Positions 2,788-27,626 of a stretch of DNA of 42,288 nucleotides are shown one piece after another (position 1 is the first letter of the stretch; the number at the start of each line of letters is the position of its first letter). Both the position numbers and the translations under genes were made by a program. Source of the DNA: a virus (taxonomy: Duplodnaviria > Caudoviricetes); IMG/VR virus record IMGVR_UViG_3300032269_001075, positions 1 to 42,288 of that record; one strand, 5' to 3'. The notes under the pieces are model-generated. The model ran no database searches, was not told where the DNA came from, and saw only the letters and a list, made by a program, of their open reading frames with translations.

Positions 2788-4560
2788 CTATGTTTTTATA
2801 GAAACATCGTCATTTGGGGATAATCCTGCATTTGGACCATGGGATAAAAGTTCTCATTTTAAATCAATATCATTAGTATTAAAGATTATTTGAAATTCGT
2901 AAAACGAAATTTTTGGGACTGTTTGTTTTGTCCTAAATTTTGGAAAATTGGGAGACCCTGCAATTAAAGAACCAAAAGGCATTTTTGCTAAAGAATTTTT
3001 ACCTAAAGAGGCGTCTTCTTTAGATTCAAAAATTATAGCAGGGTTAGACATGTCTATTACCCTATTTTCAATTTCTCCTTTAGAACCTAAATAATCATAT
3101 TTATATGATACATTTATTTTTGCAGATTTTGTAGCATAACCCTCAATATAATATTCATTAAAATCTTTTTTTCAATCTCTTCTTCCAAAATTATTATAAG
3201 AAAATACAGCAACACAATTTATAGGATTGCCTAAATCGTCTGTAGAGTTTTCATCAAATATTTTATATGACTCATTTCCTGAATAAGAGTGTCCATAAAG
3301 TTTTCCTTTAATAATAGAAAAACAACTTATTGACATTCTTTGTGGTGGTTGTCAATAATTATTTTCATGGTCAAAAATCATCACTAGTGATTGTTTTGGA
3401 AATGTTATAAAAGATTGGTCTCTATAAAAAATCCCATTAGCGTCAGTCATATCTAAAGGATAAAAATCTTTTTTTACAGGGTCAGACAGTGGGCGAGATT
3501 GTGGGGTGTTTATATTTTCCACTCTCCCAAGCTGGTCTAAAACATTTTCATTAGAAACAAAAACAACAGAGTTTTTTATTTTCCAAATTAACTTATGAGT
3601 AATAGCCCCTTGCAATGGACCTGATTTTAACTTTTCTACAGTTAGTGCTTCTTTTAAATTGTCTGAAGACAAAGTAAAAACTGTTTGGTATCAATAACTT
3701 TTACCTGCAGATAGATATACAGCATCTTCATGTGAAACCATTCCGCTTCCATAACCATCAAGATTTAATAACGCTCCCTCTCCAGGAAGTCTACCAGCAG
3801 TGGTTCATGTGAAATCATTATAGTTTGTATTTTTAGAAACATAAGCATTTCTACTTGTTTTACTTTGAACATATATTTGATTTTTATGAACTAAAATAAA
3901 ATTAGCAAGTGCAGTAGAACTGACAGACAAAGCGGAGGTTTTAACTTTCTGAATTGCTAAATCATCTTGAGAAACATTCCCTATGGGAGATGGGGATACC
4001 CCAGTCAAAGTGGCTGTCCCCTCTCCCCCAGTATAAGCATATTCTATATTATTAATTAAAATAATCTTGTCCCTAGAAGCATAGAACCTATTTTCAGCTC
4101 ACGAAGTTGAACCTTGTTTTGTAATAGTAGTAGATGTTACTGAATCCACAACAGCGACACCACCGCTTCACTCAAATAAATTATTTGTGCCATTACAAAA
4201 CAAAAGAACATCTATTTTTTCTGTATTATCTCATCACTCTGCAAAACAAAAGTCAACAGAAGTTAAAGACGATAAAATATCTACTCAAACGTCGTTGTTT
4301 AAAAGTTGTAGTTTTTCACCATAACATCTCAAGTTTAACTCTCCACCAGTATTATTACTTCAGTCATAAGAGGAAACTATTTTTGAGTCAGAATCTTTTT
4401 CTCCCCCCAATAAAGAAATACCACCTCTTGATACAACTTTTTCTCCAGCATTTACTAAAACATTTTGTGAGCCTGTAACTAAAAAACGATAATCAACATT
4501 TGTTATATCTTTTTTTGTTTGGTAACCATAATATTCTGATAGCAATTTAGATTCTTTCAT
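2788..4560 (-). CDS. Putative tail nozzle / DNA-stabilisation protein (P22 gp10 or T7 gp12 position), 590 aa with TGA=Trp
   Basis: Four track ORFs (4360..4560, 3805..4008, 3352..3672, 2854..3051) are in frame and joined by TGA; TAG stop at 2788; function inferred from size and synteny only. Confidence 0.65.
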
Positions 4561-15159: not shown

Positions 15160-15516
15160 GACGCAAGATTACAATTATAACACTATCATTAAAATAAAAT
15201 AATTATATGACAAAAAAAAAATTACCTAGCATTAAAGGTTATAATAAAGACGGGTCAGTCTATAGGGCTATAGTATATACTAACAGTCAAATTTGAGATA
15301 GATTTAATCTTTATGTAAAAGAGTTATTAGAAAATTCTAACATTACTGATTATGATAAATTATTTTTATCAAAATTAAAAACTCTTAAAGATAAAAAAAA
15401 TATATATAGCAATTTGACTATAAGAGACTATTTTTATAAATTCAACAATTGAGATATGACGCAAGATTACAATTATAACACTATCATTAAAATAAAATAA
15501 TTATATGACAAAAAAA
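15160..15516 (+). repeat. 59-bp perfect direct repeat (15160-15218 and 15458-15516)
   Basis: gacgcaagattacaattataacactatcattaaaataaaataattatatgacaaaaaaa occurs twice; each copy includes a start codon. Confidence 0.9.
15207..15500 (+). CDS. Hypothetical protein, 97 aa (2 TGA)
   Basis: Open only with TGA=Trp; starts in repeat copy 1 and ends in copy 2. Confidence 0.6.
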
Positions 15517-19159: not shown

Positions 19160-21397
19160 ATGAACACCGCACAAAACATAATAAAAAACGACTACTTAAG
19201 AGACTGGTCTATTAATGACAAGATTACTTTCTGTGAGTATTATCAAAAAAGAATACCACTAACACCAAACTTGTATCCCCATCAGCAGAAAATGTTAGAA
19301 AAGAACCCATCAAAACACTTGCTTGCTTTTTCCACGGGGACAGGTAAAACAATTACTGCTATTGCTCTTGCTAACAAAAATGCTACAGCAAGTTTGCTTG
19401 TGATAGCACCAAAAACAAATGTAAAGATGTGGTGTCAGGAGTTATCAAAGTTTATAAAGCCTGAAACTTATTGTATGGTTTTGAGTAAGGAAGAATTTAA
19501 AAGTCAGGCAAAAACTTTGTTTGCTTTTGATGTTGTGATTGTTGATGAATGTTTTGTCGCTGGAACAAAAGTAAAAACAATAAATGGTTATAAAAATATA
19601 GAAGATATAAAGATTGGAGAAGTGGTTTATAATGCTTGTGGAATTGGGAAAGTTCAAAATGTAGGAGTTAAAGAAGTTGATGAGATATATAAAATAAAAC
19701 TTTCAAATGGAAAAGAAATTGAATGTACTGGGGAGCATCCATTCTTGACGACTAATGGTTGGGTAAAAGTTAAAGATTTAATCCTTGATAATAGTGAGTT
19801 GTTGCATTATTGTAAAGTTTATGATATGATAAATTTATATGATATTAACTTGCGAAGTTTGCAAAAACAAAATAACAAAAATCTCTCGTGGGAGGGTAAA
19901 GAGAACATGCTCAAGGAGTTGTCAGACGAAATTGATGTGGATGGAACATGGGAAAAAAATTCACAAGGGATTACTCAATTCATACAAAAAAGACAAGATG
20001 AGAGCAGTCAATTCTTCGGAGAGAATGAAGAAAAACAATCCCATGAAGAATTTAGAGACAAGATTGAAGATGTCTCAAACATTAAAAATGATTGGACACA
20101 AGCCAAAAATACAGGGTGGGAATGGGAAAGAAATGCCAATTCCACAAAGAGTTTTATTAACAGCGTTAGGGAGTGGTTGGTATGCAGAGCATATTGTAAT
20201 AACAAAAAATGTGTTGGGGGCCCCAAACAATTACAAAATAGATATTGCAAATCCGAAAAAGCATATTGCTATAGAAGTGGATGGTCCAAGTCATTACTCC
20301 ATTTTAAGGAAAAATCAAGACAGAAAGAAAGAAGAAGTTTTGAAAAGATTAGGGTGGAAAGTATTCAGATTCAAAAATCAGGAAGTGATGGAAAATTTAA
20401 AGTCTATAATCTTGAAGTTTCAGGACACCCGTCATATATAGTTGAAGATATTGTGGTTCATAATTGTCATTATTTTTTTGGGATTAAAAGTCAAATGAGT
20501 AAGGCACTAGCATACTATAACAAAAAACACTCTACAAAATATTTATATCTTGCTACCGCCACACCATATCTATCTACACCAATGAATATTTATGTTGCAG
20601 GGAAACTGCTTGGGGCAAACTGAAATTATCAAGACTTTATAAACAAATTCTTTTATTATCTTCCTATGGGGCATAGAAGTATCCCTGTGCAAAGAAAGGG
20701 AATGGAAGAGGAAGTTTCTGCTCTAGTGTCGCAGATAGGGACTACTGTAGATATGGAAGAAGTTGCAGACGTCCCTGAACCCGAACTAAATAATTACTTT
20801 TTTGATAATACTGAAGAACAAAACAAGGCTATATTAGACTTTTTTGACCCTGAATTTATTGTAAGATTTACAAAAAAACACACAATGGAAAATGGATTTT
20901 TTAAAAACGATGATGGCGAGATTGTATATTTAGAAAATAAGAAAGAAGAATTTATTTTAAATTTTGCAAAAGAAAATAAAAAGTTTATTGTGGTTGCTAG
21001 ATACATACCACAATTAAATAAATATAAACAGCTATTAGAGAAAGATGGATATAAAACTTTAGAATTAAATGGCTCTATCAAAGACAGGCAAAGTGTTATT
21101 GATGAAGCCAACAAATTAGAAAAGGTTATATTATTAATCCAAGCATCATGCTCGGCGGGTTTTGAATTACCTACATTTAAGACCATGATTTTTGCCTCAC
21201 TTTCATTTTCACTGGTAGATTATGTGCAAATGATTGGGAGAATACAAAGAATTAATGCACTACAAGAGTGTCAGTATATACACCTGACACAAAATGGAGT
21301 GGATAGGGACATTAAAAAATGTATTGATGAAAAGCAAGACTTTACTCTCGCCATATATGGTAAAGAGTATGGTAATTATAAATTAAAAGAAGAATAA
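19160..21397 (+). CDS. SF2 (SNF2-like) DExH helicase precursor with intein; 745 aa, 440 aa after splicing
   Basis: LYPHQ (Q motif), TGTGKT (I), VIVDE/CH (II, split by intein), ATATP (III), SAGFEL (V), QMIGRIQR (VI); two track ORFs joined in frame by TGA at 20621. Confidence 0.92.
19802..19830 (+). promoter_or_regulatory. Internal promoter for the nested endonuclease
   Basis: TTGCAT-N17-TATGAT with TGn extension; ATG 19839 follows 8 nt after the -10. Confidence 0.6.
19839..20441 (+). CDS. Nested +1-frame DUF559/Vsr-like endonuclease with N-terminal Zn-binding and NUMOD3-like motifs, 200 aa
   Basis: CEVC...TCSRSC; NNPMKNLETRLKMSQTLK; YKIDIA...IAIEVDGPSH...DRKKEEVLKRLGWKVFRFKNQEV. Confidence 0.88.
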   Translation: MILTCEVCKNKITKISRGRVKRTCSRSCQTKLMWMEHGKKIHKGLLNSYKKDKMRAVNSSERMKKNNPMKNLETRLKMSQTLKMIGHKPKIQGGNGKEMPIPQRVLLTALGSGWYAEHIVITKNVLGAPNNYKIDIANPKKHIAIEVDGPSHYSILRKNQDRKKEEVLKRLGWKVFRFKNQEVMENLKSIILKFQDTRHI

Positions 21398-24619: not shown

Positions 24620-24994
24620 ATGAACGAACGAAACTTTTACCCTCAAATAAAAAAGTATTTATCTAACTTTGGCACTTGTGCTTGTGAGGTCAAAATCACA
24701 AAGACAAAAAGATTTAGTTTTAGTGAATTAAAAGAGCATCAAGAGAATGCTCTTTGGTTTTGTAAAAATAGAAGTTTATCTTACAAAATTTCTGACCAAT
24801 CTATGGGCCAGAAGTTGTGTGATTTAATATTTTTTAAAAATAGTGAAGCATATTTATGTGTTATATTTTATGAGTTAAGAAATACCAAGATTCTTTTTAT
24901 AGATATTAATGATTATTTAGAGTTTAAAAAGTCTCACGACATGAAGTCTGCGACTTATAGTGAGTTGAAGCTTATTGCAAAAAAAGAGTTTTAA
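24620..24994 (+). CDS. RecU-like / PD-(D/E)xK Holliday junction resolvase-like nuclease
   Basis: CEVKITKTKRFSFSELKEHQENAL resembles the RecU ExK...HQ motif. Confidence 0.6.
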   Translation: MNERNFYPQIKKYLSNFGTCACEVKITKTKRFSFSELKEHQENALWFCKNRSLSYKISDQSMGQKLCDLIFFKNSEAYLCVIFYELRNTKILFIDINDYLEFKKSHDMKSATYSELKLIAKKEF

Positions 24995-25030
24995 TATTTG
25001 CTACCCCCATATCCACAGTTTTATCCACAT

Positions 25031-25054
25031 AAAAACCCACACCGAAGTGTGGGT
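25031..25054 (-). terminator. Intrinsic terminator with a cUUCGg tetraloop
   Basis: 8-bp stem plus U run on the minus strand, at the junction of convergent operons. Confidence 0.85.
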
Positions 25055-25102
25055 AGCAGTCTATCCCTGCTAGTCAAGATTTATCACCTCCTTTCTGTAG
25101 CC
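25031..25102 (-). ncRNA. Candidate ~72-nt small RNA with an extended Shine-Dalgarno sequence, a hairpin and an intrinsic terminator
   Basis: TGTTATAAT promoter (25117-25109); AGAAAGGAGGTGAT (25096-25083); tagcag/ctgcta stem; ACCCACAC-TTCG-GTGTGGGT-TTTT. Confidence 0.6.
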
Positions 25103-25312
25103 TATGTTATTATAACATAGATTCTTTCTTAATTTCTTCTATGGTCTTTTTAAATCAGTCTTTAATTTTAATTAATATCTTTTCCATTTTTATAATAATT
25201 TTCACATTCAAATTTCATTAACGTGTGCCTTAGCAAGTTCAATTTTTTCTTTATTTTTTATATAATCTTTACAGTTTTTAACCTTAGTTAATTTTATTTT
25301 ATTCATATATTT

Positions 25313-26860
25313 TTATTTTATTATTGTATTACTTGGTAACTCTTTTATTGCTCCTAATTCAGCCTCAAGTATGGCAATTTTATTATTTATTTCTAATTGT
25401 TTAGCTTTTGTGTCTACTGGGTATTTTTTAATCATACTCAGCTCTACATTTAATTTGCTAACCTCAACATTTATTTCCCCTATTCTATCTTTAGCTGTTT
25501 TACTGTGAAGTAACTCCATAAAATTCTCTTCATTTCTTTTAGAGATTTCTGCAGCTTCTTTCGCCGCTCCTATATCGTCAATCTCATTACTATTATGTGA
25601 GATTGATTTTGCGTAATTGTCTAAGTTGTCTGTTGCCATAAAATATCTTGAGTCACTTTCTTCTTCTGACTCTAAACTTTTTGTTTCGTCTATAATATCT
25701 ATTGTAACATATTTCATGATAAGTTCCTTGTGTTCAGGATATAGTCTTCAGTAGTCTTTACCCTCAGAAGCTTTGTGGAATCTTTCACAGATTCTATGTG
25801 CATTTAACTCCTCAAGGGCTGTTTTTGTAGCATCTGTAGGTACTCCAAGTAGCATAGCAGCTCCTTTAGAGGTAATATCTTTATACTGACACATTAATTT
25901 AATTACTCTTCTTCTGTCTCTCGGTATAGAGTCAAAAGACATTTTAAATAATTTTGATTTTATATAATCATTTAAATCCTTTAACTCATATAAAAATAAT
26001 AAAGTATCAGCTAATTTAATTATTTGATTACTGGCTCTCATAGGGACTTCGGGAGAATATATGCTTATAAGCTCACCTCTAAAATTTCTCCTGACTCCTC
26101 CTCTCGCTTTAGTTGTAAAGTCAATCATTCTAATTAATTCTTCTTCTTCTTTTTCTGTTATGTGAGGCATAAGGTTCGCTGGTTTTATTGCTTTTCAATT
26201 TGATTCTATAAACTCTCTAAACATACTTTGAAGCTTCTCTCTTGTGCCTATAATTGAATCTCTGTTTTTAATAGAAGTCTTTGCCATTATAATTCTTACT
26301 TCATCATTTGGGTCTTCCATTTCATAATATAAAGCTCTTCTTCCCAACCCAGCAGTCTCAGAATCATAATGGTATATCTCATCAGTACATGCCATCATTG
26401 CTACGATTTTCCCAGCTCATGATTGAGAGTTCCCATTTCCTGAAAGTTTAGTAAATTTTCCGTCAAATATCTCTCTAAGTTGTGAGTTTATTTGGTCTCT
26501 TGTTTCTTTTGGGGTTGTAATAATAGAGGTAAAATCTTTAAAAATAATCATACCTTTTGTGCCAAGTTTATGAAGTAAAGAATTTTCCACCCCTTTCTTA
26601 TTGGTCATTGATGACAAAAAAGTATTGGCTGTTAAATTTGATATGGTCTCTGTATTCTTTAAGTTGGCTGCCATATTTACTACTTCTGTTTTACCTGCTG
26701 AAGAAGCCCCAATTAAAAATACCCAAATTGCCTCTCCGTCCATTTTCATATTTATACAAAGTGCAGCTAAAAGTTCTATAGGGAAAAAGTCGGTCATGTA
26801 GAAATGTTTTTTATACTCAGCAATTATGTCTTCTATTTTTATACTTTTTTTATTTTCCAT
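25313..26860 (-). CDS. Primase-associated P-loop/AAA+ helicase-like ATPase, 515 aa with TGA=Trp
   Basis: Four in-frame track ORFs joined by TGA at 26417, 26195 and 25748; Walker A GASSAGKT, Walker B-like IIFKDFT, QLREIFDG. Confidence 0.8.
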
Positions 26861-26864
26861 ATAT

Positions 26865-27626
26865 TTATTTGCTTAGTCTTTTAACTGCATTGATAAAGTT
26901 TTCTCCATATAGCTGACCTGCAACATGTATAGCGTCTCCTGACCTGCCACAACCAAAACAGTGTACACTATTTGTTTTTGGGTAATACTTCATTGACCCT
27001 GATTTTTCATTATGTCAAATACACTTAGCAAAAAGCTGGCTGTCAAACTTAATCATTTCTGTTATAGGGTATTGTTTAGCTTTGTAAATATCACTATCAT
27101 CAATAAGGGAATCAGATGGTTTTTTATATGAATAAGTTTTATATAACTTCTTTCAATCTTCTTCTCTCTCTACAGAATCATTAATCATTAATTGTAAAAA
27201 TTCTCTATCGTTATTTTCTCTCTGTTCAATTTGTAACTTTTGTCAATATGTTTTTTCTATGTCTATAAATTCTTTTATTATTTGTTTTGCATGCGGGACA
27301 TTGTATCTTAATAGCTCTCTAGTTATATCTATTTGTTTTTTATGTGAATTGATAAATTCATAATTATTATATGCAAGGTCTGTATTATCACATCTGTAAA
27401 AATCTTTTCCATCTTTGTAATCTTTATAGTGAGCAAATAAAATTATTTTTCTTATTCTGTCAAAAGAAATGTTGTCTCTATTTATTAAAAAAGTTTCTCT
27501 TTCGTCTTGAAACATTGTTATCTTTTCAGTTTCAAGTGACTCGAATTTGTTATTTTTTGTTTTAATATTAAAAATTGGTTTTGATTCTAGCATAATGTTT
27601 ATAATGTTTATCCTTATTGGAAACAT
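26865..27626 (-). CDS. CHC2 zinc-finger (DnaG primase zinc-binding domain-like) protein, about 253 aa
   Basis: C-terminal CI[W]HNEKSGSMKYY...VHCFGCGRSGDAI, reached through TGA codons; no TOPRIM domain recognised. Confidence 0.8.

Follow-up and report, generated by a model that had tools for sequence, protein, structure and literature searches.

Small RNAs that bind the ribosome are known in bacteria from few cases. The closest to the element described here are rreB and rreR of Alphaproteobacteria, which, in the portion of Hahn et al. drawn on here (PMC5711450), carry an extended complement of the 16S rRNA 3' tail that includes GAUCC, begin at a weak non-AUG start and are expected to be translated poorly. 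According to the same portion, rreB binds the 30S subunit through a 17-nt Shine-Dalgarno (SD) sequence and is weakly translated; the rreB gene lies on the chromosome, with a GUG start that shares the last base of the complement and a conserved peptide of 14 or 18 amino acids. SprF1 of Staphylococcus aureus is likewise a small RNA that binds ribosomes, via a purine-rich 5' end, and attenuates initiation (PMC8938821, in excerpt), and its system lies on a prophage (PMC10579593, in excerpt). Apart from small RNAs, STAB-SD elements and polypurine 5' stabilisers contain an SD to which ribosomes bind although it starts no ordinary gene (PMC3997798, at the level of its reference list), and in the frameshift signals of dnaX and HIV a stem-loop follows directly on the codon in the P site (PMC7282821, in excerpt). 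Furthermore, in the extended SD-anti-SD pairing of S. aureus, a start-proximal AU/GU extension lengthens the spacing between SD and start, and UUG starts are common; in the sections of PMC13009471 available, this is a general feature of ordinary genes, with neither a fixed word nor a hairpin.

The phage motif reported here resembles rreB and SprF1 in its likely binding of ribosomes and differs from them in several defining features. Its 16S-tail complement spans 10-16 nt, often with one mismatch (14 nt and perfect in the window), as against 16-17 nt in rreB/rreR; moreover, the UUG stands 4-12 nt from it, conservation does not extend to a peptide, a fixed word and a hairpin come behind, and the motif is carried by phages across several phyla. 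SprF1 serves as antisense antitoxin to SprG1, whereas no toxin gene is tied to the motif, 98 flanking ORFs of at least 70 codons showing no shared neighbour. STAB-SD elements sit in 5' leaders and need no conserved fold behind them, whereas the motif precedes a terminator in 169 of 222 members and ends an operon in the window. In dnaX, an internal SD lies upstream of the stem-loop; the dnaX and HIV stem-loops affect ribosomes during elongation over a slippery sequence, whereas the motif has no such sequence and the frames upstream of it vary.

The window, a whole virus record of 42 kb (42,288 nt), gives matches to terminase, capsid, helicase and resolvase. Its genome decodes TGA as tryptophan: coverage by ORFs of at least 100 codons rises from 0.66 to 0.83 once TGA is read as sense, and one TGA of the terminase gene aligns with tryptophan in 80 of 97 homologues, the other terminase TGA being uninformative. 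TGA codons are spread unevenly over the genes: the 504-aa terminase has 2, the 590-aa gene at 2788-4560 has 11. A search of the window for tRNA genes found none. The genes have A-rich, SD-less leaders, as a sequence-only reading of this DNA had held: none of 49 ATG starts reaches an anti-SD energy of -5 kcal/mol or lower, against 11% of random sites, and 2 of 40 ATG starts are SD-led in another ORF set. These leaders and the TATGCTATAAT promoters presumably resemble those of Patescibacteria phages, and the host here may itself be SD-poor. No close relatives were found in IMG/VR through the ATPase of the window; an uncultured carrier of the motif (G456) has helicase, primase and ATPase in common with it. 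A SNF2-type helicase with an intein (Pfam PF14890) is encoded at 19160-21397 (+).

The sequence confirms all the parts that the earlier reading had placed on the minus strand, namely the -10, SD, UUG, 6-bp hairpin and UUCG terminator, together with an 18-codon frame whose stop lies beyond the terminator (Table 1). Absent from that reading were the TGA code, the 25-codon ORF that ends inside the -10 and, above all, the parts that are most conserved, UCUUGRC and the G-RRA(N)AGA-C loop. The 25-codon ORF is probably expressed, to judge by its A-rich leader, and since it stops inside the proposed -10, the element doubles as the 3' end of the primase/ATPase operon. Because the resolvase-like gene is convergent, there is no downstream gene on the element's strand to regulate.

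Table 1. Features at and around the element, in window coordinates
Feature	Position	Strand	Remarks
Primase zinc finger	26865-27626	-	In the operon upstream of the element
ATPase	25313-26860	-	Same operon as the primase zinc finger
38-codon ORF	25190-25306	-	Operon member after the ATPase
25-codon ORF	25110-25187	-	Needs TGA = Trp; last gene of the operon; stops 14 nt before the SD
Extended -10-like TGTTATAAT	25109-25117	-	Overlaps the stop of the 25-codon ORF; candidate promoter, start about 25103-25102
Extended SD AGAAAGGAGGTGAT	25083-25096	-	14-nt perfect complement of the 16S 3' tail
UCUUGRC word	25073-25079	-	UUG at 25077-25075, 5 nt past the predicted SD helix
18-codon UUG frame	25021-25077	-	Stop at 25023-25021, beyond the U tract
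Conserved hairpin, 6 bp	25054-25072	-	Stem UAGCAG/CUGCUA, loop GGAUAGA; family loop RRA(N)AGA
Terminator-like hairpin, UUCG loop and U tract	25031-25054 (hairpin 25054-25035)	-	Read from the sequence
Holliday-junction resolvase-like gene	24620-24994	+	phrog_843, E 3e-7; convergent with the element

AGAAAGGAGGTGAT is the exact complement of the 3' end of a fetched Streptococcus 16S gene, in line with the claim of the sequence-only reading that it matches the 16S tail of many bacteria, and it is indeed the strongest anti-SD site of the genome (-23.2 kcal/mol, against -17.6 for the runner-up). With 0.0004 perfect 14-nt complements expected by chance in the window, the match is not a chance one. 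TGnTATAAT occurs 16 times in the window genome against 5.2 in shuffles, and five TATGCTATAAT sites sit 6-30 nt upstream of ATGs; the enrichment makes a promoter of the element's own plausible, though still unproven. UUCG terminators number 3 against 0.6 in shuffles. Accordingly, the element would either be transcribed from its own -10, giving an RNA of 72-76 nt, or form the tail of the replication operon. A 9-bp palindrome over the -10 was dismissed as within chance (6 entries, against 0-5 in shuffles). Two DnaA-box-like 9-mers, one of them perfect by what we take to be the consensus, stand directly behind the terminator at 25009-25029 (+); such boxes also lie behind the motif in five other loci (L329, L395, L537, L560 and L551), and across the window genome they number 22 against 14.5 expected, barely above chance. 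Elsewhere in the window, small plus-strand genes share a repeated leader (copies at 15207, 15505 and 17688, +) with opposite-strand TGTTATAAT at 15182 and 15480 (-). The 32-40-codon plus-strand frames of the window, looked at as candidate antisense genes, have no typical leader.

The window element is one member of a phage RNA family without an Rfam match. The family consensus comprises a purine-rich GGUG(A/G)UCC, then, 5-13 nt from the GGUG, UCUUG(A/G)C, and a hairpin in which four firm pairs close an RRA(N)AGA loop; a terminator usually comes next. The window element gave no match to Rfam 15 at E up to 10 and 15 further loci matched no family; the best match of members was the rreB-related entry CC2171, at 22 of 75 bits and E 0.19, through the SD part alone. 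In a blastn search with the element, 31 of the 75 records matched were of Streptococcus phages (best E 1e-5), through the core from SD to hairpin only. Pattern scans of IMG/VR listed at least 120 stretches (about 300 estimated) and then 45, 107 and 82, and scans elsewhere gave 64 GTDB stretches and 3 metagenome stretches; of 120 matches to a loose pattern, most were chance ones. Filters on the pairing of the stem and the strength of the SD left 224 distinct members, which represent 53 independent upstream contexts. The two free inner stem pairs are paired in 351 of 360 pattern matches, from 24 unrelated contexts, the other nine, with unpaired stems, being excluded; Streptococcus is strongly over-represented, 280 of the 351 instances forming one cluster. 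A contig from a second run of the study that yielded the window (X2) carries a variant at 25065 that turns the loop into the family's commonest, and the same run holds another, 46-nt motif-like contig.

Carriers in GTDB comprise Streptococcus, Eremococcus, a Clostridiaceae genome, Providencia and Marinobacterium; further carriers are Proteus and Klebsiella phages (a podovirus included), SPN3US-like Salmonella and Erwinia jumbo phages, and uncultured SD-less phages. A covariance model (R1) found the motif in 24 of 151 Streptococcus genomes at E 0.01, 16 of them strong and eight weak ones (E above 1e-4) excluded on inspection, in 5 of 24 Providencia genomes and in 3 of a sample of 151 genomes at the level of Lactobacillales. 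In samples of 151 genomes each at the level of Enterobacteriaceae and from the class of another carrier genome (G455), the centre genome alone was found, which describes the samples rather than an absence from those groups. A plasmid search gave no match; among Escherichia coli genomes, a Providencia member as query found none and another member found only weak 29-nt matches inside a coding sequence. Weak BLAST matches in coding sequence of Streptomyces phage Spernnie and Escherichia phage ECP2304 were not counted. The motif is thus patchy, and phage-linked wherever neighbours were annotated; it is mostly present once per phage, as in the window, SPN3US, G456 and G457. It is undescribed in the literature searched, which for the paper on 224 motifs (PMC5737381) means passages of the main text, and it matches nothing in the readable supplement tables of the Fremin 2021/2023 structured-RNA screens (PMC10690425, PMC8040213). 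An anonymous earlier listing in the large archives of those screens or in the PMC5737381 supplement is possible; as far as checked, within that literature and those tables, the motif is real, conserved and undescribed.

Conservation is concentrated in the hairpin, the SD and the UUG word, and the SD-hairpin-terminator layout of the sequence-only reading extends, in both covariance-model and pattern searches, far beyond close relatives. The four inner stem pairs hold in 48 of 48 rows of an alignment (A1), with covariation at three of the four; two-sided pair changes number 47 against 16.7 in shuffles, and slid controls are at most 47% paired. The rows of A1 were partly chosen for pairing, the unbiased measures being the 351/360 count of free pairs and a table of SD by pairing over 57 relaxed matches. 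Likewise, the patterns fixed most invariant letters, and invariance was tested at single positions and by covariance-model hits. Juxtapositions in 99 cores comprise 48 G-U against 6 A-C, which indicates that the folded molecule is the sense-strand RNA. An SD-like segment is present in 70 of 71 members drawn by an SD-blind pattern, against a 2% background, and a strong SD and a paired stem co-occur in the 57 relaxed matches (22/3/4/28, p 7e-9); the SD is co-selected with the hairpin. A terminator follows within 75 nt in 169 of 222 members, against 4.5% of random sites.

In the sequences compared, the SD also follows the 16S tail of the host: a GAAAG extension is found in 12 of 27 members from Firmicutes hosts, in 0 of 19 from Gammaproteobacteria hosts and in 7 of 13 from SD-less phages, which fits the fetched tails, the host labels of IMG/VR loci being partly presumed from similarity. 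From the end of the predicted SD helix to the UUG there are 4-8 nt in 49 of 53 contexts (range 4-12, never below 4), and longer spacers accompany longer 3' pairing (rho 0.46). The distance from GGAGG to UUG is 9-17 nt with a mode of 12, and at this length the UUG may never reach the P site. A scan of IMG/VR for AUG, GUG or CUG in place of the UUG returned 2 matches only, both with unpaired stems. The UCU of the word could pair with the AGA of the loop in 48 of 48 rows of A1; these pairs, a candidate pseudoknot, are invariant there and show no covariation, and no compensatory change occurs among the variants, a U-G variant (L602) keeping the pairing and a loop variant (L584) breaking it. Against the docking reading given below, the SD is only partly open in predicted folds (mean unpaired 0.41) and the core stem has a probability above 0.5 in only 35 of 49.

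The predicted product, on the other hand, varies. Across members the UUG frame runs from 5 to 238 codons (mode 8 codons, 66 of 222), loops of 6 and 7 nt shift the frame after codon 5, the frame is non-stop in 55 of 169 terminator-bearing members, and a -10 hexamer was seen by eye just upstream in 3-4 of 21 displayed members. Peptide, non-stop frame and promoter are therefore not conserved, and the non-stop RNA and dedicated promoter of the sequence-only reading do not carry over from the window to the family. That reading had also offered a micropeptide as an alternative. A functional peptide M-(T/A)-x-R would draw on the similarity of the first four codons in most members and on the 8-codon mode; it is scarcely credible given that the loop end AGAC is kept in two frames, codon 3 tracks the covariation of the stem and lengths are unconstrained. 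A sigma-70 promoter (TTGAC with a downstream TATAAA) was rejected, the -10 being missing in many members, the window included; a SECIS element, prfB-type frameshift, CsrA sponge, type III antitoxin and ribozyme were rejected for misfits of spacing or consensus and for want of an Rfam match.

Selection on pairing with the 16S tail and on a fixed word and fold at start-codon distance, with none on the product, leads us to infer a ribosome-docking module. It is very probable that the RNA binds ribosomes at all; that a phage RNA module of about 45 nt docks the host ribosome and holds it at the UUG without making a useful protein is the reading that we favour, tentatively. The element would be produced at the 3' end of an abundant phage transcript or, alternatively in the window, from its own -10 as an RNA of 72-76 nt. 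Its SD would pair with 10-16 nt of the 16S tail, often while the ribosome finishes the gene just upstream, and the UUG would land at the P site. The hairpin, 3-5 nt after the UUG, might then compete with the mRNA channel or sit in the A site, impeding accommodation or A-site entry (docking of stem-loops in the A site is on record, in the excerpt of PMC7282821), while in the free RNA the UUG may be masked by pairing of the UCU with the loop AGA. The outcome would be a long-lived 30S or 70S complex. The weakest step is the benefit: the 16S tail might be covered and ribosomes kept intact or occupied, as by an RNA counterpart of a hibernation factor, and an SD oligonucleotide does shield 16S rRNA from RNase R in vitro (PMC10901742, in excerpt). 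Five rival explanations were ranked, in the order attenuator-like micro-ORF, STAB-SD-type stabiliser, protein-binding or rRNA-mimic site, selective decoy and micropeptide.

The decoy is the form in which the ribosome-binding RNA was proposed by the sequence-only reading, according to which it would lower SD-led host mRNAs in trans while SD-less phage mRNAs escape. The ribosome-binding half of that proposal stands as the best reading (the layout is conserved, the SD follows the host tail and no peptide is conserved), and the selective half does not. The window and several uncultured carriers do offer a genuinely SD-less context, and SprF1 provides a precedent for attenuated initiation through a purine-rich 5' end (PMC8938821, in excerpt). 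Nevertheless, selective shut-off of SD-led host mRNA is unlikely because most sampled carriers use SD-led genes: the largest carrier groups, the Streptococcus, Providencia and Eremococcus prophages, bear strong SDs on their own genes neighbouring the element, SD-led head genes among them. The window's host, moreover, may itself be SD-poor. Overproduction of rreB left growth unchanged, and its authors argue that ribosomes outnumber the RNA (PMC5711450, in excerpt); this would also limit any bulk titration or shielding. On these grounds the trans decoy is highly improbable. Since SD-led and SD-less phages both keep the element, covering of the tail or keeping of ribosomes is favoured over shut-off of SD-led messages. 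One SD-less carrier (G457, L612-L613) looks TAG-recoded, its coding cover rising from 0.79 to 0.89; at its motif SD ends a small CxxC-rich ORF that it shares with L357. TGA recoding of another locus (L270) was rejected, coding cover being 0.62 vs 0.65.

The neighbourhood of the element bears on the two cis-acting rivals. The motif lies between minor head and scaffold genes, terminase and scaffold, or spanin and small terminase, inside a head protease coding sequence, behind a DNA polymerase exonuclease gene where the genes converge, after endolysin, or before tRNA arrays; in SPN3US it sits in the non-coding kilobase before gp1. An attenuator-like micro-ORF, initiated at the UUG and coupled to the upstream stop, would melt the hairpin and tune read-through of the terminator, with an AGG, AGA or CGG arginine codon at position 4 as a possible sensor. 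The start-like spacing of the UUG accords with it, as do the terminator in 169 of 222 members and the presence of a downstream same-strand gene (scaffold, capsid or terminase) in temperate phages; in one locus (L275) a tRNA-Arg(TCT) begins right behind the terminator. Furthermore, an upstream ORF of at least 25 codons stops within -35 to +15 in 34 of 53 contexts, against 21% of random sites, a weak control as random sites are mostly coding. The next gene is, however, convergent in the window and three further loci (L066, L362 and L483), where there is nothing to read into; the distance from stop to terminator and the ORF length (5-238 codons, in varying frame) vary freely, and no conserved sensor codons were found, codon 4 being Gly or Trp in some members. 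A start codon should also tolerate AUG or GUG, yet the UUG is fixed, and in one group the element lies inside the protease gene. The micro-ORF is, taken together, unlikely.

Several observations attach to these neighbourhoods. A second SD with an ORF of about 6-10 codons, stopping before or in the motif SD, was seen by eye in six Firmicutes-type members (L003, L121, L271, L412, L437 and L442). tmRNA and tRNA arrays, both with tRNA-Arg(TCT), adjoin the motif at L270:303-601 and 2143-2619 and at L275:1452-1967, and in L270, a relative, a phrog_843 match (E 2e-4) converges on the motif as in the window. In Salmonella and Erwinia jumbo phages further conserved hairpins, with no Rfam match, flank the motif (L477:1-1180).

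As a STAB-SD-type stabiliser, the element would hold a ribosome in the path of exonucleases and thereby spare the downstream scaffold/capsid message or the upstream operon. Such stabilisers are known (titles in the reference list of PMC3997798), and in many Firmicutes prophages the element does stand ahead of highly expressed head genes. Against this reading, there is usually a terminator between the element and the gene that follows, and the element also occurs in Gammaproteobacteria phages and at operon ends. Gammaproteobacteria mostly lack RNase J; to our knowledge, a STAB-SD needs neither a fixed UUG word nor a fixed loop. The stabiliser is accordingly quite unlikely.

The element could also be a protein-binding site, either for nut-like boxA/boxB antitermination or as an rRNA-mimic decoy, the SD only delivering or anchoring it; UCUUGRC and the purine-rich loop closed by G..A presumably resemble boxA and boxB. 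UCUUGAC occurs in 16S rRNA about 540 nt before the tail in the rRNA operons of both hosts, Streptococcus and Providencia (L614 and L615), and GGAAAGAC occurs in the 23S rRNA of the same two, at what we take to be the A2058 macrolide site. These matches are, however, short words picked out post hoc, such as may arise by chance, and loops of 7 nt, the commoner kind, mismatch the 23S sequence. Copies of the hairpin with little or no SD in Acinetobacter phages BS46 (three copies) and Brutus, embedded in longer non-coding stretches that are conserved (L482:799-825 and 1189-1215; L605; L475:1498-1524), suggest that the hairpin may have a ribosome-independent partner. No N-like or RNA-binding gene is shared among the neighbours by PHROG hits, and the tight co-selection of SD and hairpin also speaks against a site to which the SD is incidental, leaving this reading very unlikely.

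The docking module remains the preferred reading. One compact motif recurs in temperate Streptococcus and Providencia phages, in a lytic podovirus, in jumbo phages and in recoded phages without SDs, with its SD retuned to the 16S tail of each host, which points to a conserved host target and to a phage function that is yet to be described. Cultured carriers exist (SPN3US, PH15 and Klebsiella phage Asterion), and the core amounts to a 45-nt oligonucleotide. In a bolder form, which we regard as rather unlikely, the motif would represent a new class of phage accessory RNA that clamps the small subunit, with the SD over the whole tail and a pseudoknotted hairpin in the decoding channel, as an RNA-only hibernation or counter-defence factor. 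If true, such a clamp RNA would park ribosomes and shield them from tail-directed decay or ribosome-targeting defence, and unrelated phages, ranging from prophages of streptococci to jumbo phages of the SPN3US type, would retain it much as they retain a tRNA or tmRNA gene.
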